A stretch of DNA of 40,855 nt from Longimicrobiaceae bacterium (GCA_051006015.1 JBPCIT010000265.1:1-40855), one strand, 5' to 3'. Shown: positions 3,274 through 39,600, counted from the first letter of the stretch. The notes: generated from the sequence alone by a model not told the origin. A program made the numbers and translations.

Positions 3274-4551
3274 ATGAGCCCACTGCGCTTCTGCATGATC
3301 ACCACCTTCTATCCCCCCTACCACTTCGGGGGTGATGGAGTGAACGTGCAGCGCTTCGCGCGCGGGCTCGCGCGGCAAGGCCATGAGGTCGTGGTGATCC
3401 ATGATGTGGACGCCTACAACGCGCTGCACGATGGTCCGGAACCGCCAGCTCCGCAGGAGCAGGACGGCGTAGAGGTGGTGCGGCTGCGCAGTCGCCTGGG
3501 TGCACTCTCGCCGCTGCTGACGCACCAGCTCGGCCAGCCCATCGTTCACGGCGGGAAGATCCGGCAGATCCTCGATCGCGGGCGCTTCGATGTCATCCAC
3601 TATCACAACATCTCATTGGTAGGCGGACCCGGCATCCTCGCGGCGGGCAAGGCGCTCAAGGTCTACACGGCGCGCGAGCACTGGCTGGTCTGCCCCAGTA
3701 ACGTGCTCTGGCGACACGGGCGCGAGCTCTGCACCGGCCGCGAATGCACCCGCTGCGTGCTGAACCACGGCCGTCCACCGCAGCTCTGGCGCTACACCGA
3801 CTATCTCGAGCAGCAGCTCGATCACGTGGACCTCTTCATCGCCCTGAGCGAGTTCAGCCGGGAGAAGCACCGGGAGTTCGGCTTCCATCGCCCGATGGAG
3901 GTTCTTCCCAACCTCCTCGCAGATACGGCTGCGGAGGTTTCGATCCCTGCCGGCGATCCGCCGAACGAGCGCCCGTACTTTCTCTTCGTCGGCCGCATCG
4001 AGCGCATCAAGGGGCTGGATGATGTGGTGCCGGTCTTCCACTCCTATCCGGACGCGGACCTGCTGATCGCCGGTACCGGCGACCACGCGCCGGTGATCCG
4101 GAAGCTGGCAGCCGGCAACCCGCGGGTGAAGTTCCTGGGCCAGGTTCCTCCGGAGGAGCTGGCACGCTACTACCACCACGCGCTCGCTCTCCTGGCGCCT
4201 TCCGTGTGCTATGAAACCTTCGGCGTGATCCTGATCGAGGCCTTCCGGCTCTCCACCCCGGTAATCGCCCGCCGTATCGGTCCCTTCCCGGAGATCGTCG
4301 AGCGCTCTGGCGGCGGCGAGCTCTTCTCGACGCCGCAGGAGCTGGTGGCGGCGATGCGGCGCCTGCAGGCGGACGCCGCGCTGCGCCGACGCATGGGCGT
4401 GGCGGGACACAACGCCTTTCTCCGGAACTGGTCCGAGTCTGCGGTCATTCCGCGCTATCTCGAACTCGTCCGCCGGACCGCCGAGCGGAAGGGCAACTCC
4501 CGCGTCGCCGCGGCGCTGGAGGGCGAGCGGACGCTGTCTGCGGCTTCCTGA
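3274..4551 (+). CDS. GT4-family (GT-B fold) glycosyltransferase.
   Basis: 425-aa ORF. N-terminal FYPPYHFGG with a HEVVV acceptor-domain pattern. C-terminal donor-binding E-x7-E motif (CYETFGVILIEAF...PVIA). Confidence 0.85.
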   Translation: MSPLRFCMITTFYPPYHFGGDGVNVQRFARGLARQGHEVVVIHDVDAYNALHDGPEPPAPQEQDGVEVVRLRSRLGALSPLLTHQLGQPIVHGGKIRQILDRGRFDVIHYHNISLVGGPGILAAGKALKVYTAREHWLVCPSNVLWRHGRELCTGRECTRCVLNHGRPPQLWRYTDYLEQQLDHVDLFIALSEFSREKHREFGFHRPMEVLPNLLADTAAEVSIPAGDPPNERPYFLFVGRIERIKGLDDVVPVFHSYPDADLLIAGTGDHAPVIRKLAAGNPRVKFLGQVPPEELARYYHHALALLAPSVCYETFGVILIEAFRLSTPVIARRIGPFPEIVERSGGGELFSTPQELVAAMRRLQADAALRRRMGVAGHNAFLRNWSESAVIPRYLELVRRTAERKGNSRVAAALEGERTLSAAS

Positions 4552-28401: not shown

Positions 28402-28605
28402 GGAAGGAATTTAACCAATCACCGGCCTCGTGTCCCCCCCTGTGCTGGGCATCTGCTTCGCGGTGCGGCGGATCGCTACGGTGGATTCGCCCGACATCCC
28501 GATCGCCATTCTCGCGCGTCACGTGGGCCGTTGTGCCTCGAAAATGGCGCGGGAGTTGCCGCCTGCCCCCACTCCACAACCCGCAGCTCCACCACGGTAG
28601 CGACG

Positions 28606-28971
28606 ATGACTCCCAGGACGATTCTGCTGATCGAGGGCCACGGGGACACACGCGAGGTGTACGGGGAGATCCTCCGCCGCGCCGGCTACCGCGTCCTGGC
28701 AGCGAAGGATGGAGGCGAGGGCGTACGACTGGCGCGCGAGCATCTGCCGGACCTGGTCGTGACCGATCTCGCGCTGCCCGTCGTGGATGGCTGGCATGTG
28801 ACGGGATTGCTCAAACAGCACGCTCCAACGGCGCACATCCCGGTGATCGCCATCACGGCGAACACGCAGAACTTCTACCGCGGCCGCGCCGAGGCTGTGG
28901 GGTGCGACGCGTTCCTGGAGAAGCCCTGCCCGCCCGCTCTCCTGCTCGAAACCATCGAGCGCCTGCTGTAG
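28606..28971 (+). CDS. single-domain CheY-like response regulator receiver.
   Basis: 121 aa from the ATG at 28606 (MTPRTILLIEGHGD...). Conserved acidic pocket, phospho-acceptor D in VVTDLALP, T/K in later loops. The 312-aa track ORF is an upstream artefact. Confidence 0.85.
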   Translation: MTPRTILLIEGHGDTREVYGEILRRAGYRVLAAKDGGEGVRLAREHLPDLVVTDLALPVVDGWHVTGLLKQHAPTAHIPVIAITANTQNFYRGRAEAVGCDAFLEKPCPPALLLETIERLL

Positions 28972-28978
28972 GGGAGGA

Positions 28979-29400
28979 CTACCTCGATCCGGCTTCCGCC
29001 GAGTCCTCCTCCTCGGGCTTCGGCAGGAAGAAGCGGAAGGTGGTCCCCACGCCGGCTCGCTCTCGAACTCCACGCGGCTGCCGAGCTGCTGGACCGCATC
29101 CTGTGCGATCGAGAAGCCCAGTCCCAAGCCCTCTGCGACGTCGGGGTGAGCACGGAAGAACCGATCGAGGATTCGCCCCTGATGCTCAGGCTCGGTCCCG
29201 AGCCGGTTGTCGCTCACCGATGCCCACCAGCCGCCTCCCGCCTCCTGCTCGAACGCGATCCGCACCCGGCGCACGGGCTTGCCGCGGTCGCAGTACTTGG
29301 CCGCGTTGCTGATCAGGTTGAGGAGGACGATCTCGACCCGGGCCGCGCCCGGTTTCGCTCAGGGCCCGGATCTCCCCGCCGAGCATGTGCACCAGGCGCC
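28979..29400 (-). pseudogene. histidine kinase remnant. It comprises a HATPase_c catalytic domain with a 1-bp frameshift near its C-terminus, preceded by a duplicated ~30-aa G2-box fragment. The DHp / H-box region is absent.
   Basis: Minus-strand reading [11 protein letters not shown] (N-box), VSDNRLG (G1), ILDRFFRAH, GLGLGFSIAQ (G2), VEFESEP. One missing G in CCGGG would restore ...EPGVGTTFRFFLPKPEEEDSAEAGSR-stop at 28979. Upstream lies an isolated [27 protein letters not shown] segment in another frame. Confidence 0.6.
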
Positions 29401-29738: not shown

Positions 29739-30350
29739 TTACACTGCGGGCGAGGTGAGTTGGCCGATGATGCCCCGAATGGCCGCGTGGTACTCCGTGA
29801 TGTCGAAGTGACCGGGATCGACCAGTGCTTGCACCGCGCACCCGTTGATGAGGCTCACCGCAACCGCGGCAAGGCCGTCCGGATTGACTTCGCCAACTGC
29901 TGCGGACTCGGACCGAAGAACCTCTTCGGCCACGGCGCGGAGCGCCGAGCGGTAGCGCTCGAGCGCGGCGCTGATATTCTTCCCGATGGCCGGGTCCCGC
30001 GTGCCCAGCGTTCAGTACTCGAAGAACAGCGGGGTCCTGTGCGGCTCGTGAGAAAGGCGGTCCATCTCCGGCAGCAGGAGCGAGCGCAGCCGATCCGCGG
30101 GTTGGCGGCTCTGTGCTACATCGTCGGGGATGTGCAGGGTGAGAGTGGTCGCCAGCACCCAGTCGAGCAGGGCTCGCACCAGCTGGTCCTTGGTCTTGAA
30201 GTGGAAGTGCACCAGACCGTGGCTCACCCGCGCTTCGGCCGCAATCGACCGCACCGTCAACCCACCGACCCCCACCCGTGAGGCCACGTCAAAAGCAGCC
30301 TTCAGGAGCTGCTGACGACGCTCTTCCTCGGACGCTTTCTTTCCCGGCAT
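29739..30350 (-). pseudogene. TetR-family transcriptional regulator interrupted by an in-frame TGA (30012-30014), probably TGG(Trp) to TGA.
   Basis: N-terminal HTH (LTVRSIAAEARVSHGLVHFHFKTKDQLV) in the 112-aa ORF. The same frame continues after the TGA into the 64-aa ORF (FFEY-stop-TLGTRDPAIGKN...). Combined length of 204 aa is typical for TetR. AGGAGAGGAG upstream of the ATG. Confidence 0.75.
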
Positions 30351-31821: not shown

Positions 31822-32091
31822 CTACACGATGGTGTTGAGTGCGGTCCGAACACGGTGGCGCTCCGCTTCCGCCCAGACGACATGGTCCTCGATGCGGTTC
31901 AGCGTGCCGGTGGTGTCATGGGCCATCTCGCCGGGATCTGAGCCGGGGCCGTCGTTGAACGCATCCACGAACGCGGTCAGCGCGGCCATATACTCCGCGG
32001 CGGTCGTGCGCGCCTCCGGCTGGTGGGCCGCCACCTGCCGCTCGAACTGGAGCCGGAGCGTTTCTATCGTTGCCTTTTCTGCGTCGAACAT
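31822..32091 (-). CDS. small hypothetical protein (89 aa).
   Basis: ORF with GGGAGA 4 nt upstream of the ATG and high GC3. No recognisable domain. Confidence 0.45.
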   Translation of the reverse strand: MFDAEKATIETLRLQFERQVAAHQPEARTTAAEYMAALTAFVDAFNDGPGSDPGEMAHDTTGTLNRIEDHVVWAEAERHRVRTALNTIV

Positions 32092-32159: not shown

Positions 32160-35100
32160 TTACGGTTGCTTCCTACGACGCGGCAGCCAGACGCGGAAGG
32201 TGCTCCCCCGGCCGAGCTCACTCTCGACCTCGACGTCGCCGCCGAGCAGCCGGCTGAACTCCCGGGCTGCCGCAAGCCCGATCCCCATGCCGCCGAATGC
32301 GCGGGTCGTGGCGTTGTCGGCCCGCCAGAATCGCTCGAAGATGTGGGCCTGGTCCTCGGGCGCGATTCCGATGCCCGTATCGCGGACCTCGAAGACAACC
32401 CGCTCCCCCTCCGCTCGTACCTCCAAATTGATCTCTCCGCGCTCAGTATACCTGACGGCGTTGCCGCACAGGTTGACGAGGATCTGGCGGGCCTTGTCGG
32501 CATCCATATCCAGCTCGACGGCCTCGTCTGGAAGGCTCAGGACCAGCGCGAGATCCTTTGCCTCCGCACTGGGCTCGACCAGCACCTTTGCCTCGCGCGC
32601 GATCATTCTCGCGTCCACCTTCTCGTACCGCACCGTCTCGCAACCCTCGTCCAGCTTTGCGAAGGTGAGGATCTCGTCGATCATGGAGGCGAGATGCCAG
32701 CCGCACACCTTGATCCGCTCGATCTTTTCCACCTGCGGTGTCGTGAGCGGCCCATCGAGGTCGAGTAGCTCGGAATAGCCGAGCATCGCAGTGAGCGGGG
32801 TACGGAATTCGTGCGACATCGTCGCCAGAAAGCTCCCCTTGAGCAGGTTCGCCGATTCGGCCGCGATCTTCGCCTCCCGCAGCTCCTCCTGGACCCGCCG
32901 TCGCGCGGTGTTGTCGACGAAGGTGAGCACGGCGCCATCGATCTCGCCCTCGGCGTAACGGTACGGGTTGATGCGGAGGATGTACCACTCGCCGGCGTCG
33001 CTCGACACCTCACGCTCGATCCGCTCCTGCGAGGTGAGCACGCTCTGCGCATCGGCGACCAGGTCGGGGTAGTCGAGCCGGTGGGTGATGTGGGCGAGCG
33101 GACGGCCCTGGTCCGTGGCGACGAAGTTGAAGAGCGTCGCGACCGACGGGGTGAACCGCCGGATCCGCATCGCGCGGTCGAGAAAGATGGTGCCGATCTC
33201 CGTGGATTCGATCAGGTTCTGGAGATCGGCGTTCGTCCGCTTCAGCTCCTCGATCGAGCTCTGGTGCTCCTGGTTGATGGTGGTGAGCTCCTCGTTGATG
33301 GACTGGATCTCCTCGCGGCTGGTCTCCAGCTCCTCGGCCGCCGCCTTCTGCTCCTCGTTGACCGACAGCAGCTCCTGGTTGGCCGACTGGAGCTCCTCCA
33401 CCGTCCGATCGCGCGCCGCGATAGTGGATTCGAGCTGCTCCTCGATCCGACGCAGCTCCTCCTCCGGGCGGGCGACCGCTCGCGGGGGGGGGGGATCCTG
33501 CAGCGCCTCTCCCTCGGCCGCCGGCTCGGTCTCAAGCAGCGCCTCTTCCTCGAAGAGGACCAGGGCGAACCTACCCGCTCTCTCGTCTCCTACCGGTGGG
33601 TTCACCCGCAGGCATAGCGGGGCACCGCCGTTGAGGCGGAGGTGGCGGGTGGTCGGCAGCCCCTTCGCAAAGGCCTGGTAGAGCGCCGTGCGCAGCTCCA
33701 TTCGCAGCTCGGGCGGGGCCAGGTCCATCAGGTCGTGGCTCGGCTCGCCCTCCGCCAGGTGCAGGTAGTCGCCGGCCCGGCCGGAGAGGTGGACCACCTC
33801 GAGCCGCTCGTCCACGACCAGGCTCGCCGGCGCGTAATGCTCGAGCATCCGCAGATGGACCGGCCCGTACGCGAACCGGTGCGGGCGGGACATCTCGATG
33901 GCATCCGCCGGTCGGCCGCCGGGCCGGGAAGGCGGATCCGCGGCCGAGAGCCGCGGCAGGACCCGGTGCGGGGTGGCGTTGCGGCGGTAGATCCGCGACG
34001 CCCGCGCGACGGGCACGAAGCGCCCGCTCTCCCCCGCCGACTCCGCCGAGCCGAGGAAGAGCAGCCCCTGCGACCGCAGCGCATAGTGGAAGGTCGCGAT
34101 CGCCTGTTCCTGAGCCGCCGGCTGGAGGTAGATGAGCAGGTTCCGGCAGCTGATCAGGTCGAGCCGCGAGAAGGGTGGGTCGTGCAACACGTTGTGGACG
34201 GCGAAGAGCACTCCCTCGCGCAGCGGCTTCTTGATCCGGTAGCCTCCCGCCTCCTGGGTGAAGTAGCGGCGGAGCCGCTCGGGCGGGATCTCCGCCACGG
34301 CAGAGGCCGGGTAGATGGCCGCGCGGCCCCGCGCGTAGCCCTTCTCGTCGATGTCGGTGGCGAAGATCTGGATCTGCGGCGGGTGCTCCAGGGTGGCCGC
34401 GTGCTCGTTCGACAGGATGGCGATCGAGTAGGCCTCCTCGCCCGTGGCGCACCCCACCACCCAGACACGCACCGCGTCATCCGGTCCCTTGCCCTCGAAG
34501 AGCGCAGGAATCGCCTCCGCCAGCGCGCTGAACGCCTCCGGATCCCGGAAAAAGGAGCTCACCGAGATCAGCAGGTCCCGCACGAGCGCCCGGGCCTCGG
34601 TCTCACTCGCCCGCAGCATCGGCAGATAGTCCTCGAGGGTCGCCGCACCATTGAAGCGCAGCCGCCGCTCGAGCCGGCGCAGGATGGTGGAGGGCTTGTA
34701 CAGGCTGAAGTCGTGGCCGGTCTTGCCACGCAGTACGGCGAAGATCTGGGCCAGCTGCGCCTGGGTGTCCCCGGGAGGCGAGTCGACCTCGAGGGGCGAC
34801 GGCATCCGCCGGAGGCGAAGCAACTCGGCGGGGACCCGCGCCGACGGTAGCACCAGGTCGATCTGCCCGGTCGCGATCGCGCTCTCCGGCATCCCGTCGT
34901 ACTCGGCTTCGTCCGGCGACTGGGCGACCGTGATGCCACCGCACTCCTTGATGTGCCGGGTCCCCGACGCGCCGTCGCTGCCGGTGCCGGAGAGCACAAC
35001 GCCGACCGCATCCGGTCCGCACGCCTCGGCGAGTGTGCGGAAGAAAAGGTCGATGGGCGAATGCTGCGGTCCGTCGCCGCGCTCCTGCAGGCGGAGGGTC

Positions 35101-35501
35101 GCGTCCTGTATCGTGAGGTCGTGGCCCGGCGGGATGATGTAGATGTGGTCGGGCTCCACCGTCGTCGTCCCGGTGACCTGCGTCACAGGGACCGAAGTCC
35201 GGTCCTGCAGGAGCGCGGCGATGCGGCTCTCCCGCTCCGGGTCCAGGTGCATGATCACCACGTATGCCATGCCGCTGTCGGCCCGCACCGACTGGAAGAA
35301 GAGCTGCAGCGCCTTCAGCCCGCCCGCCGAGGCACCGATCCCCACGACCGTCAGCGGGCCCCGATCTCCTACATCGGGGCTGCTAGCCTGTTCGGGAAGG
35401 ACCGCCTGAGTCATGGCTGCCTCGAAGGAAGTGAGGGCCGCTCGCGCGGCCGAGGCCAACGGTGACCATCGATCAGAAGGCGCTCCACTTCGGAGAACCA
35501 T
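32160..35501 (-). CDS. multidomain chemosensory fusion: CheB-type methylesterase + CheR-type methyltransferase + coiled-coil/PAS + histidine kinase (HisKA + HATPase_c). Start possibly at the ATG at 35414.
   Basis: GIGASAGGLKAL...YVVIMHLDP (CheB catalytic domain); VRVWVVGCATGEEAYSIAIL (CheR SAM-binding); long heptad region (ELQSANQELLSVNEEQKAAAEELETSREEIQSINEEL); FLATMSHEFRTPLTAM (H-box); LVNLCGNAVRYT, VRDTGIGI, GGMGIGLAAAREF (N, G1, G2 boxes). Confidence 0.9.
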   Translation of the reverse strand: MVLRSGAPSDRWSPLASAARAALTSFEAAMTQAVLPEQASSPDVGDRGPLTVVGIGASAGGLKALQLFFQSVRADSGMAYVVIMHLDPERESRIAALLQDRTSVPVTQVTGTTTVEPDHIYIIPPGHDLTIQDATLRLQERGDGPQHSPIDLFFRTLAEACGPDAVGVVLSGTGSDGASGTRHIKECGGITVAQSPDEAEYDGMPESAIATGQIDLVLPSARVPAELLRLRRMPSPLEVDSPPGDTQAQLAQIFAVLRGKTGHDFSLYKPSTILRRLERRLRFNGAATLEDYLPMLRASETEARALVRDLLISVSSFFRDPEAFSALAEAIPALFEGKGPDDAVRVWVVGCATGEEAYSIAILSNEHAATLEHPPQIQIFATDIDEKGYARGRAAIYPASAVAEIPPERLRRYFTQEAGGYRIKKPLREGVLFAVHNVLHDPPFSRLDLISCRNLLIYLQPAAQEQAIATFHYALRSQGLLFLGSAESAGESGRFVPVARASRIYRRNATPHRVLPRLSAADPPSRPGGRPADAIEMSRPHRFAYGPVHLRMLEHYAPASLVVDERLEVVHLSGRAGDYLHLAEGEPSHDLMDLAPPELRMELRTALYQAFAKGLPTTRHLRLNGGAPLCLRVNPPVGDERAGRFALVLFEEEALLETEPAAEGEALQDPPPPRAVARPEEELRRIEEQLESTIAARDRTVEELQSANQELLSVNEEQKAAAEELETSREEIQSINEELTTINQEHQSSIEELKRTNADLQNLIESTEIGTIFLDRAMRIRRFTPSVATLFNFVATDQGRPLAHITHRLDYPDLVADAQSVLTSQERIEREVSSDAGEWYILRINPYRYAEGEIDGAVLTFVDNTARRRVQEELREAKIAAESANLLKGSFLATMSHEFRTPLTAMLGYSELLDLDGPLTTPQVEKIERIKVCGWHLASMIDEILTFAKLDEGCETVRYEKVDARMIAREAKVLVEPSAEAKDLALVLSLPDEAVELDMDADKARQILVNLCGNAVRYTERGEINLEVRAEGERVVFEVRDTGIGIAPEDQAHIFERFWRADNATTRAFGGMGIGLAAAREFSRLLGGDVEVESELGRGSTFRVWLPRRRKQP

Positions 35502-36016: not shown

Positions 36017-36306
36017 TCGCTGGCGGCGGCGCTGGCGTTCGCCACCAGCACCACCCTGCCGCGGAACGCGGCCGCACTGCCCGCACTGACATTGAACCAC
36101 CACCCCAAGATGCGAGAGAGACCCACTCTGCGGCCCCACGAACCAGGTGAGGCGCCCGGGGGGGTGGTGGCGCGTGCGCTCACGATCCTCGAGGAAGAGA
36201 CGCGGGCGTGGACGGCGTTGCGCGAGCACCGGTTGGCACGCTCGCGTGAGGCGGTGCGGTCCGGTGAAGCGGCGGAATCGGACCCCGATGGTTCGCGGAG
36301 TGCACC

Positions 36307-39300
36307 ATGATCTGCTCGCGCTGCGGCCGGGAGAACGTGCGGTCGGCCCGCTTCTGCAACAACTGCGGAGGCGACCTGGGGCCGACGTGCCCGCACTGCG
36401 GTTTCGAGAATCCACCTGAATCGAAGTTCTGTGGCGGCTGCGGCCACCGTCTGCAGGAGGTGCACGCGTCGGAGGCGGAGGGCGAGCGCCGGCAGATCAC
36501 GGTGCTCTTCTGCGACCTGGTAGGCTCGACGGAACTCTCTCAGCAGCTCGACCCGGAGGACCTGCGCGATGTCATCGCGGCGTACCAGAGTGTCTGCGGC
36601 GAAGCGGTGGCGGCCCACGAAGGATATGTCGCGCAGTACCTCGGCGACGGCATCATCGTCTACTTCGGCTACCCGCGTGCCCAGGAAGACGATGCCCAGC
36701 GCGCCGTTCGCTGCGGGCTGGACATGCTGCGGCGGGTGCAGGTGGTCGCGGCGCAGATACGCAAGGACGTCACCCTGGCCGTGCGCGTCGCCGTGCACAC
36801 GGGGCGGGTCGTGGTGGGGCCGGTGGGCGCGGGCGACCGCCAGGACCGGATCGCGCTGGGCGACGCACCCAACATCGCCGCGCGACTGCAGGGGGTGGCG
36901 GAGCCCGGCACGCTGGTCGTGAGCGACGCGACCTGGGGCATCGTGAGCGGCTACTTTACCGGCCGCTCCATCGGCGAGGTGCAGCTCAAAGGCATAGCCC
37001 AGCCGATGGAGGTGTGGCTAATCGACGGCGAGACGGCATGGCGCGACCGCCTCGATGCGGCCGGCAGGCTGGCTCCCTTCGTCGGCCGCGAGCGAGAGCG
37101 ACGCCTCCTCGAGGAAGCCTGGCAGGCGGCGCAGCGGGGCGAGACGGGTTTCATCCTGCTGCGTGCGGATGCGGGCGTGGGCAAGTCGCGGCTCGGTCGG
37201 CTCTTTCGTGATCAGGCCGAGGCCTCCGGTGCGGCGGTGCTGGTGGCCCGGGCTTCCCCCTATAACAGCGACAGCCCGTTCTACCCGATCATCGAGCTGC
37301 TCGCGCAGCGGTTCGGTCTCGAACCGGGGCAGTCGGCGGACGAACAGCTGGCACGCCTCGAGGGCGCGCTCCGCGAGCTGCATCTGGACCCGGCCGTGGT
37401 CGTACCCTTCCTGGCGCCGCTGCTGGCCATCCCCGCCGGCGACCGCTACGCGGCTCCGGATCTCTCGCCCATACGGCGCCGCGCCCGGACCATGGAGGTG
37501 ATCGCCCATTTGTTCGGCGCCCTGGCCGAACAGACGCCGACGCTGCTGGTATTCGAGGACCTGCACTGGGCCGACACCTCGACCGCGGAGCTGCTCGAGC
37601 TGATCGTCGATACGCTGTCCGGCGTTCCGTTGCTGGGCCTGATCGCGGCGCGGCCGGATCTCGACGCATCCTGGGGCAAGGGCACCCGCCTGCAGTGCCT
37701 CGATCTGACGAAGCTGGACCCGGCACAGGCGGAGGCGCTCGCGCAGAGCGTCGCGGGCGGCAAGGCGCTGCCCGGCAAGGTGCTGCGGCAGATCGTGGCG
37801 CGCTCGGACGGCGTGCCGCTCTTCATCGAGGAGATGACGCGGGCCGTGCTCGAGTCGGGCGTGCTCCGCGAAGGCGCGGCAGCGTGGGAAGCGCGAGGGC
37901 CGGTGCCGGAGGATCTGATCCCGGCGACCGTGGCCGCGTCGCTGACCGCGCGCATCGACCGGCTCGGCACCTCGCGCGCCACCGCGCAGCTGGCCGCGAC
38001 CATCGGCCGCGAGTTCGGCTTCGCACTGCTGCGCGAGGTGAGCGAGCGCGACGAGCCGACCCTCCGCCAGGACATCAAGCGGCTAACGGACGCAGGCCTG
38101 GCGTGGGCAACAGACGAGTCAGGTGCCGGCACCTTCATGTTCAAGCACGCGCTGGTGCGCGACGCGGCCTACGAATCGCTGCTGCGCGCCACCCGCCAGA
38201 GCTATCATAGCCGCATCGCTGCCGCGATGCGCAGCAACATGGCCCAGTTCGCGGCGGAGCGGCCCGACCTGATCGCGCACCACCTGACCCAAGCCGGCGA
38301 GTACCAGGATGCGGTGGGCTTCTGGGAGACCGCCGGCCAGCAGGCGCTGCAGAGGTCGGCCATGCACGATGCGAGCGTCGACTTCCAGCGGGCGATCGGC
38401 TGCCTGAGCAACCTGCCCACGACGCGCGAACACCGGGAGCACGAGCTGGAACTGCAGCTCCAGCTCGCCCCGGTGCTCATGGCAGTGTATGGGTGGGCAG
38501 CGGTGCAAGTCGAGGAATCGTGCGAACGCGGCCGCGCGCTGGCGGAGGAGCTCGAGCGCTACGACCGCATCTACCCGCCGCTCTGGGGCCTCTGGACCGT
38601 CTACTTCCTGCGCGGTGAGCTCGAGCCGGCCATGTCTGCAGCCGAGGCGGTGCAGCGGATGGCGGAGGCTTCCGGGGTACCGATGATCCAGATTACAGGT
38701 CGCCATGCCACGGCCTATACGCTGCTCTACCGAGGCGAGATCGAGCGGGCGCTCGAAGAGGCGAACGCCGGTCTGGCGCTCTTCGATTTCGAACAGGAGA
38801 AGGCGCTGACCAGTATGTTCCAGCTCTCCTCGTCCGTCTGCCTGCGCACGGTGAGAGCGCATGCGCTCTCGATGCTGGGGCACGTCGCCGAGGCAGAGGC
38901 GGAGTGGGAGCGTATGGTGCAGCTCGCCCGGGATCTGCAGCACCTGCCCACCCTGGCCGCCGCGCTCGCCTTCTTCCTGCACGGCTACGGCTACCGCCAC
39001 TCGCACCTCCACCGGATCGAGCGGCTGTGCGAGGTCGCGGACGAGCTGCGCAGCCTGTGCAAGGACGAGGGGTTCTTGCTCTGGCTCGCGGTCGCGGAGA
39101 ACTATCGCGGCGTGATCGGGCTCGCCCTCGGCGAGGAGGATGCCCGCACCCGCATGCAGGAAGGCCTCGAGCTCTTCCTTCAGACCGGGACCCGCGTCAC
39201 CCTCGTGCTCGTGTACGTGATGATGGCCGAAGCGCTGTACGAGCTGCACGAGGACGAGGAAGCCTTCCGATTGCTGGACGAGGCCGAGGCGGAGATGGAG

Positions 39301-39600
39301 GCGCGCGGAGAGCGGCTGAACGCGCCCGAGATCTGGCGGGTACGCGGCCGCCTGCTGGCCCGGCGCGGCGACGCCGCCGCGGCCGAGGCGGCCTACCGCC
39401 ACGCGCTGCACTTCGCCGGCCAGCAGAAGGCGCGCTCCCTCGAGTTGCGCGCCGCGCTCGACCTGTACGACCTGCTGGCCACGAACGGGCGCGTCGAGGA
39501 AGGCCGTGCCCGACTCGCGGCTAGCCTCGATTCCCTCCCGGAGGGACTGGACCGCCCGGAACCGGCACGCGCGCTCGCCATCTTGGGTGGGTCCTCCTGA
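36307..39600 (+). CDS. signalling STAND protein: N-terminal double zinc ribbon + class III adenylate/guanylate cyclase domain + AAA/NB-ARC-like NTPase + C-terminal TPR-like helical repeats.
   Basis: CSRCGREN...CNNCGG...CPHCGFEN...CGGCGH (two ribbons); ITVLFCDLVGSTELS, AVHTGRVVVGPVG (cyclase homology domain, metal-binding Asp and transition-state residues); LLRADAGVGKSRL (Walker A) and LLVFEDLHWAD (Walker B); about 450-aa helical repeat C-terminal region. No HTH seen. Confidence 0.85.
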   Translation: MICSRCGRENVRSARFCNNCGGDLGPTCPHCGFENPPESKFCGGCGHRLQEVHASEAEGERRQITVLFCDLVGSTELSQQLDPEDLRDVIAAYQSVCGEAVAAHEGYVAQYLGDGIIVYFGYPRAQEDDAQRAVRCGLDMLRRVQVVAAQIRKDVTLAVRVAVHTGRVVVGPVGAGDRQDRIALGDAPNIAARLQGVAEPGTLVVSDATWGIVSGYFTGRSIGEVQLKGIAQPMEVWLIDGETAWRDRLDAAGRLAPFVGRERERRLLEEAWQAAQRGETGFILLRADAGVGKSRLGRLFRDQAEASGAAVLVARASPYNSDSPFYPIIELLAQRFGLEPGQSADEQLARLEGALRELHLDPAVVVPFLAPLLAIPAGDRYAAPDLSPIRRRARTMEVIAHLFGALAEQTPTLLVFEDLHWADTSTAELLELIVDTLSGVPLLGLIAARPDLDASWGKGTRLQCLDLTKLDPAQAEALAQSVAGGKALPGKVLRQIVARSDGVPLFIEEMTRAVLESGVLREGAAAWEARGPVPEDLIPATVAASLTARIDRLGTSRATAQLAATIGREFGFALLREVSERDEPTLRQDIKRLTDAGLAWATDESGAGTFMFKHALVRDAAYESLLRATRQSYHSRIAAAMRSNMAQFAAERPDLIAHHLTQAGEYQDAVGFWETAGQQALQRSAMHDASVDFQRAIGCLSNLPTTREHREHELELQLQLAPVLMAVYGWAAVQVEESCERGRALAEELERYDRIYPPLWGLWTVYFLRGELEPAMSAAEAVQRMAEASGVPMIQITGRHATAYTLLYRGEIERALEEANAGLALFDFEQEKALTSMFQLSSSVCLRTVRAHALSMLGHVAEAEAEWERMVQLARDLQHLPTLAAALAFFLHGYGYRHSHLHRIERLCEVADELRSLCKDEGFLLWLAVAENYRGVIGLALGEEDARTRMQEGLELFLQTGTRVTLVLVYVMMAEALYELHEDEEAFRLLDEAEAEMEARGERLNAPEIWRVRGRLLARRGDAAAAEAAYRHALHFAGQQKARSLELRAALDLYDLLATNGRVEEGRARLAASLDSLPEGLDRPEPARALAILGGSS

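Follow-up and report, generated by a model that had tools for sequence, protein, structure and literature searches.

An 11-base cytosine run in a CheB-CheR fusion histidine kinase gene of a Longimicrobiaceae bacterium is probably a young, incidental product of mutation

We analyzed a 40,855-nucleotide stretch of DNA from an uncultured Longimicrobiaceae bacterium (GCA_051006015.1, JBPCIT010000265.1, positions 1 to 40855; hereafter, the window), a metagenome-assembled contig that carries the gene of a CheB-CheR fusion sensor histidine kinase on its minus strand. The gene contains an uninterrupted run of 11 cytosines (C11; G11 on the plus strand), which an earlier note on this DNA had put forward as a potential stochastic on/off switch of the kinase. 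We propose that the run is quite probably a young, strain-specific homopolymer that was driven by mutation and lies in a disordered linker, where it is incidental: a liability and not a device.

The plus strand reads CGC-GGGGGGGGGGG-ATC at positions 33481-33497, which places G11 at exactly 33484-33494 and C11 on the coding (minus) strand at 33484..33494. There, the codons GAT CCC CCC CCC CCG CGA specify D-P-P-P-P-R, and the four proline codons CCC CCC CCC CCG consist of C11 plus the base at 33483. The open reading frame (ORF) that holds the tract spans 32160..35501 on the minus strand, with an annotated start at 35414. The run encodes Pro641-644 of the annotated 1084-amino-acid product (P0001), or residues 670-673 of the 1113-amino-acid ORF; residues are numbered by P0001 below, except for Pfam domains, which are given in ORF numbering. 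Both the sequence and the ORF agree with the earlier note that an 11-nucleotide G:C run at this place is coding and specifies PPPP in an inter-domain linker.

This run is the longest homopolymer of the window, followed by three runs of 7. When the 40.8-kb window was shuffled 100 times with its dinucleotides preserved, 6 of the shuffles contained a G11 or C11 run; about 0.06 such runs per window are expected under a first-order Markov model. A run of 11 bases is unusual for the window; if the genome measures a few megabases, several such runs would arise genome-wide from composition alone. The codon choice is also uncommon. CCC accounts for 16 of the 64 proline codons of the gene outside the tract, all eight other Pro-Pro dipeptides of the gene use interrupted codons, and three consecutive CCC codons are expected with a chance of about 1.6% by codon usage alone.

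To compare the site between strains, we used the 90%-identity protein cluster of P0001, which has five members, and read the DNA of the four others; these comparisons are between consensus assemblies. Two of them (L002, the Logan assembly of ERR15133371, and L003, the Logan assembly of SRR33880241) carry the same C11 as the window, with 99.92% identity and zero gaps over 9.3 and 8.3 kb, respectively. The other two are sister strains in which the run is broken. L004 (GCA_013694785.1, 98.1% identical) reads GAT CCC CCC CAC CCG, which is C7-A-C3 and encodes PPHP, and L001 (GCA_965611505.1, 98.0% identical) reads GAT CCC CCC CAC ACG, which is C7-ACAC and encodes PPHT. A comparison of tract length among strains, which the earlier note had suggested, gave C11 each time for this strain, with no length variant among its three assemblies; L001 and L004 differ by substitution and not by length. 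A length difference between close strains, as expected of a contingency locus, was not found at this level.

Farther from the window, the run is missing altogether. In relatives at 82-85% nucleotide identity, the aligned codons are GAC CCT GCC CGC AAG, GAC GCT GTC CAC AGG, and GAC GCT GCC CGT CAG, with no homopolymer run at the site, and no run is present in any of the seven orthologues, more distant than the sister strains, that were read as DNA. Orthologues that have PPP or GGGG elsewhere in the linker encode it by CCG CCG CCG, CCG CCG CCC, or GGC GGC GGA GGC, i.e., by interrupted codons. In the nine other distinct orthologous genes read as DNA (10 further sequences, with L002 and L003 identical), homopolymers reach a length of 7 at most. 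One homologue, P0122/L018, spans the last 88 residues only, and the tract lies outside it. A scan of JGI metagenome contigs and GTDB genomes with the pattern GCGCTGSAGGAT-N{4,24}-GCGAGCGGTCGC returned 10 matches, all 10 of them unrelated and due to chance, and no further alleles. The tract is neither maintained nor recurrent in the related strains and species, and, by the sequences compared, it is restricted to one strain lineage. The earlier note had reasoned that an invariant tract length together with interrupted codons in orthologues would speak against selection for a slippery tract. Because both were found, its idea of a switch is unsupported, as far as consensus assemblies allow.

The region around the tract tolerates much variation. 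The linker (P0001 622-649; 33468..33551, minus strand) is hypervariable in an alignment of 122 sequences and predicted to be disordered in an AlphaFold2 model built on 122 homologues (mean predicted local distance difference test score, pLDDT, of 79). Residues 625-647 are modeled as coil with pLDDT < 50; the tetraproline lies inside this coil, and a long helix is predicted to begin four residues later. Nowhere is the protein less conserved than at residues 622-649, where column identities are mostly 0.1-0.4 versus >0.8 in the flanking strand and helix. Over the 122 homologues, the linker varies in length from 17 to 35 residues and is dominated by A, E, G, P, and D. PPPP is found in this strain only among the 122, and PPP in the linker of five of them. 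The gene itself is under purifying selection (ratio of nonsynonymous to synonymous substitution rates, dN/dS, of 0.29-0.31 for the window versus the two sister strains and of 0.41 for L001 versus L004), and 6 of the 28 amino acid differences from L001 fall within residues 635-650.

A separate difference lies six codons past the proline run. At position 33466, codon 650 of the 1084-amino-acid product is CCG (Pro) in the window and CTG (Leu) in L002, L003, and both sister strains. This residue is the third of the 90-residue helix and is leucine in 80% of the 122 homologues, within the motif R-L-E-E-E-L-R-R. Pro650 is the sole nonsynonymous difference of the gene between the window and L002/L003.

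Within the run, C11 and the L004 allele differ at position 33487 alone. On the plus strand, the three C11 assemblies have G at this base, and both sister strains, L004 and L001, have T (coding codon CAC, His). The ancestral context on the plus strand would be GGG-T-GGGGGGG. In bacteria, T-to-G mutation is strongly elevated at a T that follows at least three G and lengthens the G run (Cherry, bioRxiv 10.1101/2022.10.28.514265). Because L004, L001, and one outgroup have CAC, parsimony would make CCC the derived state. We suggest that the run most likely arose by a single T-to-G substitution at a GGGT site, which would have fused G3 and G7. The lineage of the species would first have gained C7 (CCC CCC C); in one strain lineage, an A-to-C change on the coding strand (T-to-G at GGGT on the plus strand) would then have turned CAC (His) into CCC (Pro) and joined C7 and C3 into C11. 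The replacement of His by Pro would have been tolerated, and presumably neutral, because the linker sequence is barely constrained. Extension at a GGGT hotspot would also fit the otherwise improbable codon choice CCC CCC CCC. The pattern fits prolines that follow from extension of the run at the DNA level in a tolerant region, rather than a run that follows from selection for proline.

On physical grounds, the tract should be prone to slippage, but we see nothing to suggest that it has been selected as a contingency locus. That a run of this length slips readily, as the earlier note held, is known from other high-GC bacteria (PMC1891110, PMC9187656), and we consider the tract probably unstable. 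Once formed, C11 would be expected to act as a hotspot of replication slippage and perhaps of transcription slippage. The consequences of such slippage were simulated, and they bear out the prediction that a change of one base truncates the protein and removes the kinase half. The C10 product has 723 amino acids (643 native residues followed by an 80-residue R/S-rich out-of-frame tail) and the C12 product has 801 (644 native residues followed by a 157-residue G/A/R-rich out-of-frame tail), and both lack PAS_10, HisKA, and HATPase_c. The kinase core formed by HisKA and HATPase_c (32175..32840, minus strand) is lost after any frameshift at the tract, and C8 and C14 keep the reading frame. One-base variants would thus yield kinase-less products that purifying selection would remove, and because such variants should be purged, we regard the tract as a transient mutational liability and not as an evolved switch.

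Searches for frameshifted products were negative within narrow limits. Exact look-ups in a collection of 15 billion proteins, which detect a product only if its background is identical and its start codon was called alike, found neither C10 nor C12 products for the window sequence and no C8, C10, or C14 products for the L002 sequence (for C12, the two sequences give one and the same product). The two out-of-frame tails had zero matches in a protein database of 5.8 billion clusters, where substring queries are unreliable. Because a control query, a 150-amino-acid in-frame linker segment, did not retrieve its parent P0001 from that database, this negative carries little weight.

A change of run length does occur elsewhere in the species. 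The G7 run on the plus strand at 36158..36164 is one base longer in L001 (C8) than in the window and its near-identical assemblies L002 and L003 (C7), and this difference is one of five indels between L001 and the window. The run is intergenic, between a 94-amino-acid ORF and the gene of a cyclase-AAA_16 protein, 143 nucleotides upstream of the start of the latter at 36307, and it is possibly part of a promoter or a 5′ untranslated region. The C7/C8 polymorphism is a positive control for slippage in this species.

Several points weigh against our interpretation. Low- and medium-frequency variants of tract length within a population are invisible in consensus assemblies, and a G11 tract of Bifidobacterium breve was extremely heterogeneous in culture, with 37% G11 versus 59% G12 (PMC9187656). 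The three C11 sequences come from essentially one strain, and their invariance spans little evolutionary time. The direction of the substitution leans on the alignment of a variable linker with outgroups. Finally, the chance of about 1.6% for three consecutive CCC codons could be read as selection for an uninterrupted run; extension of the run by mutation also explains it.

The first alternative is the one that the earlier note had favored, an evolved contingency locus in which slipped-strand mispairing at C11 reversibly toggles the full-length kinase and a truncated CheB-CheR-PAS protein, with phase-varying signaling as the result. The G11 tract is longer than composition predicts, and it exceeds the threshold above which, in Bordetella (67% GC), C/G runs (>8) are more frequent than expected by chance and nearly all polymorphic in length, including runs in sensor kinase genes (PMC1891110). 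Precedents in sensor kinases of that genus are bvgS (C6) and kdpD (C10) (PMC1891110). The heterogeneous G11 of B. breve, the loss of the kinase half by one-base changes, and the uninterrupted CCC codons, unusual for the gene, point the same way. Nevertheless, length variation is zero over the three assemblies, the sister strains and the nine other distinct orthologues read as DNA either lack the tract or have it interrupted, and PPPP is unique among 122 sequences. Moreover, the tract sits in mid-gene (nucleotide 1921 of 3255, 59%), away from the 5′ end or a promoter, the exact look-up gave no frameshifted product, and there is no other long run within 40.8 kb. An evolved contingency locus is therefore very improbable in our view.

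A variant of this idea is a contingency locus caught at birth, in which one GGGT-to-GGGG hit made a hypermutable C11 whose heterogeneity is beneficial and maintained in a free-living soil member of the Gemmatimonadota. We consider this highly improbable. If it were true, the locus would stochastically split a CheB-CheR-kinase fusion to give a kinase-less module of adaptation enzymes, and phase variation of a signaling protein would be extended beyond host-associated pathogens.

Selection could also act on the protein, with the tetraproline as a rigid polyproline-II spacer or as a translational pause that depends on elongation factor P (EF-P), and with the DNA run as a side effect. Consecutive prolines stall ribosomes and require EF-P. 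PPPP lies at a domain boundary and, in the model, four residues ahead of the 90-residue helix, a position that would suit such a role. We give this explanation little credence, given that PPPP is unconserved, that the sister strains have PPHP and PPHT, and that PPP is present in the linker of no more than 5 of 122 homologues. Such selection would not favor CCC CCC CCC over the preferred CCG, either.

Slippage could take place at the level of RNA, with the polymerase slipping on the 11-nucleotide run so that a fixed fraction of transcripts encodes truncated CheB-CheR-PAS from unchanged DNA. The run exceeds the RNA-DNA hybrid and is in principle long enough, and bacterial transcription has been shown to slip on long homopolymers (e.g., PMC1088944), but that report deals with A and T runs, and we found no evidence for C/G runs. 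In addition, the out-of-frame tails are of low complexity (R/S- or G/A-rich) and have no detectable homologues by the weak test described above, the tract is unconserved, and local RNA folds are no better than those of shuffled sequences (z = +1.17). The hallmarks of a programmed transcriptional or ribosomal frameshift site, a conserved slippery run with a conserved or functional extension in the alternative frame, were not found here, and no stimulatory RNA structure was found. We regard RNA-level slippage as a very remote prospect. Neither strand at the site matches an Rfam family or a tRNA, and no promoter- or terminator-like site was found in 33000-34000.

An artefact of sequencing or assembly, which the earlier note had offered as its own alternative, is very unlikely as well. 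The true length could be other than 11, or the base at 33487 could have been miscalled from T to G after a G run (true G3-T-G7), given that errors classically occur in homopolymers and G-rich contexts and that the window is metagenome-assembled. Yet the frame stays open through the run, homology continues on either side of it, and, because assemblies of two further runs from different archives (ERR15133371 and SRR33880241) carry an identical C11, an error of consensus length is unlikely. The T-carrying strains differ at about 2% of other sites and are for that reason different strains and not a misreading of the same DNA. A template-strand G-quadruplex read from the sequence (GGGCGGG-N11-G11) was also considered and rejected as unsupported: L002 and L003 share the C11 but have GG in place of the upstream GGG, so that even sequences with C11 do not all have the motif.

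Among known systems, Bordetella (PMC1891110, 2007) resembles the present case in that a poly-C run lies in the coding sequence of a two-component sensor kinase of a high-GC genome and that, as in kdpD, a run that is long in one lineage is broken up in its siblings. The difference is that in Bordetella length polymorphism was shown for 74% of tracts, between species and strains and within single cultures (PMC1891110), whereas here we see base substitution alone. In the B. breve pilus gene bbr_0113 (Penno et al. 2022, PMC9187656), too, a frameshift in a coding 11-nucleotide G:C run decides on the downstream part of the product. There, however, equivalent G-tracts are found in various Bifidobacterium strains and cultured populations are of mixed length, as cited above (PMC9187656). 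The present tract, in contrast, is known from one strain lineage at consensus level. Mycobacterium tuberculosis is a further high-GC bacterium. Its glpK gene has a short coding C/G run (7C) at which reversible frameshifts occur; unlike in the present case, where no such recurrence was seen, the reports describe recurrent independent indels in thousands of isolates, with phenotypes (bioRxiv 10.1101/717272; PMC10334774). The GGGT-to-GGGG hotspot (Cherry 2022) shares with our site a T-to-G change after three G on the plus strand that lengthens a run. That hotspot was quantified in Salmonella, Escherichia coli, and other cultured bacteria, not in Gemmatimonadota, and the direction of the change at our site rests on parsimony.

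As it stands, C11 is one more coding mononucleotide run of a high-GC genome at a place where the protein tolerates almost any sequence. Tract length alone is no evidence for a phase-variation switch. The sister strains provide a worked example of how a long, potentially unstable homopolymer can arise in one step, by a hotspot-type T-to-G change that fuses two shorter runs. If large subpopulations with C10 or C12 existed, the tract would be one of few candidates for phase variation in a phylum that is environmental and non-pathogenic.

The gene that holds the tract spans 32160..35414 on the minus strand (1084 codons' worth of product), with an open frame upstream to 35501, and its product is 100% identical to NCBI MGI9181648.1, 'MAG: chemotaxis protein CheB [Longimicrobiaceae bacterium]'. 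From the N terminus, on the minus strand throughout, Pfam matches are CheB_methylest (ORF residues 53-227; 34821..35345; E = 1.4e-52), then CheR_N (249-299; E = 6.1e-14) and the CheR S-adenosylmethionine-binding methyltransferase (314-490; E = 5.8e-48), together at 34032..34757. The secondary structure of the AlphaFold2 model suggests a PAS-like alpha/beta domain directly upstream of the linker (P0001 518-623; 33546..33863); the PF00989 PAS profile reaches a whole-protein E value of 0.0086 at 16.5 bits, under the Pfam cut-off of 22.6, and no single stretch passes. After the linker, the model has a helix of about 90 residues (P0001 648-737; 33204..33473) that is coiled-coil-like and has a weak CENP-F_leu_zip match. 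It is followed by PAS_10 (ORF residues 760-863; 32913..33224; E = 2.5e-28), HisKA (888-953; 32643-32840; E = 1.2e-17), and HATPase_c (1000-1109; 32175-32504; E = 7.5e-30). The earlier note was therefore right to place the tract between the CheB/CheR modules and the coiled-coil and kinase core, and its description lacked the PAS-like domain, which also lies between CheR and the tract.

The order CheB_methylest, CheR_N, CheR, PAS_10, HisKA, HATPase_c is kept in all 120 listed homologues. In 122 sequences, S29 (GASAGG motif) is nearly invariant, and H56, D147, and the HisKA histidine His868 (SHEFRTP) are invariant; S29, H56, and D147 are presumably the Ser-His-Asp triad of CheB. With its CheB/CheR domains, C-terminal kinase domains, and conserved key residues, the predicted product is a CheB/CheR fusion sensor histidine kinase, which we take to be soluble. 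It has the same domain order as the CheB/CheR fusions with kinase output that JGI names 'two-component system, chemotaxis family, CheB/CheR fusion protein', and differs from them in the strain-specific linker sequence alone. Our literature search turned up no paper on the CheB-CheR-PAS-kinase architecture.

The immediate neighbors of the gene are those of a zinc-ribbon-adenylate/guanylate cyclase-AAA_16-TPR protein (36307..39600) and a TetR regulator (30012..30350). The neighborhood further comprises small unannotated ORFs and housekeeping genes for a class II tRNA synthetase, an ABC-F protein, a PolX-like polymerase, and an encapsulin-like protein. Part of the ORFs of the contig, 15 in number, were scanned against Pfam without a match to any chemotaxis-protein family, and the CheB-CheR fusion kinase looks like an orphan.

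An 89-amino-acid ORF without a Pfam match (31822..32091, minus strand) lies 68 nucleotides downstream of the kinase gene. The close orthologous loci L001, L002, L003, L015, L016, and L018 have the ORF called in the corresponding position, and in L016 there is another copy, with 78% nucleotide identity, on the upstream side of the kinase gene. This ORF may encode a dedicated partner of the kinase. In more distant orthologous loci (L020, at 3331..3434, and the gene ends of L019, L021, and L022), the next gene overlaps the stop codon of the kinase gene. The downstream partner differs between lineages, because in L020 the overlapping gene encodes a hybrid HisKA-HATPase-receiver protein in place of the 89-amino-acid ORF.

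A second kinase-like sequence is present in the window. The ORF at 28519..29274 (minus strand) has an N-terminal HATPase_c match (about 29050..29274) that covers profile positions 26-98 of 111 only, followed by about 175 residues without a family, and no HisKA-like sequence was seen upstream, as judged by eye. This ORF looks like a remnant of a histidine kinase gene or a frameshifted one.

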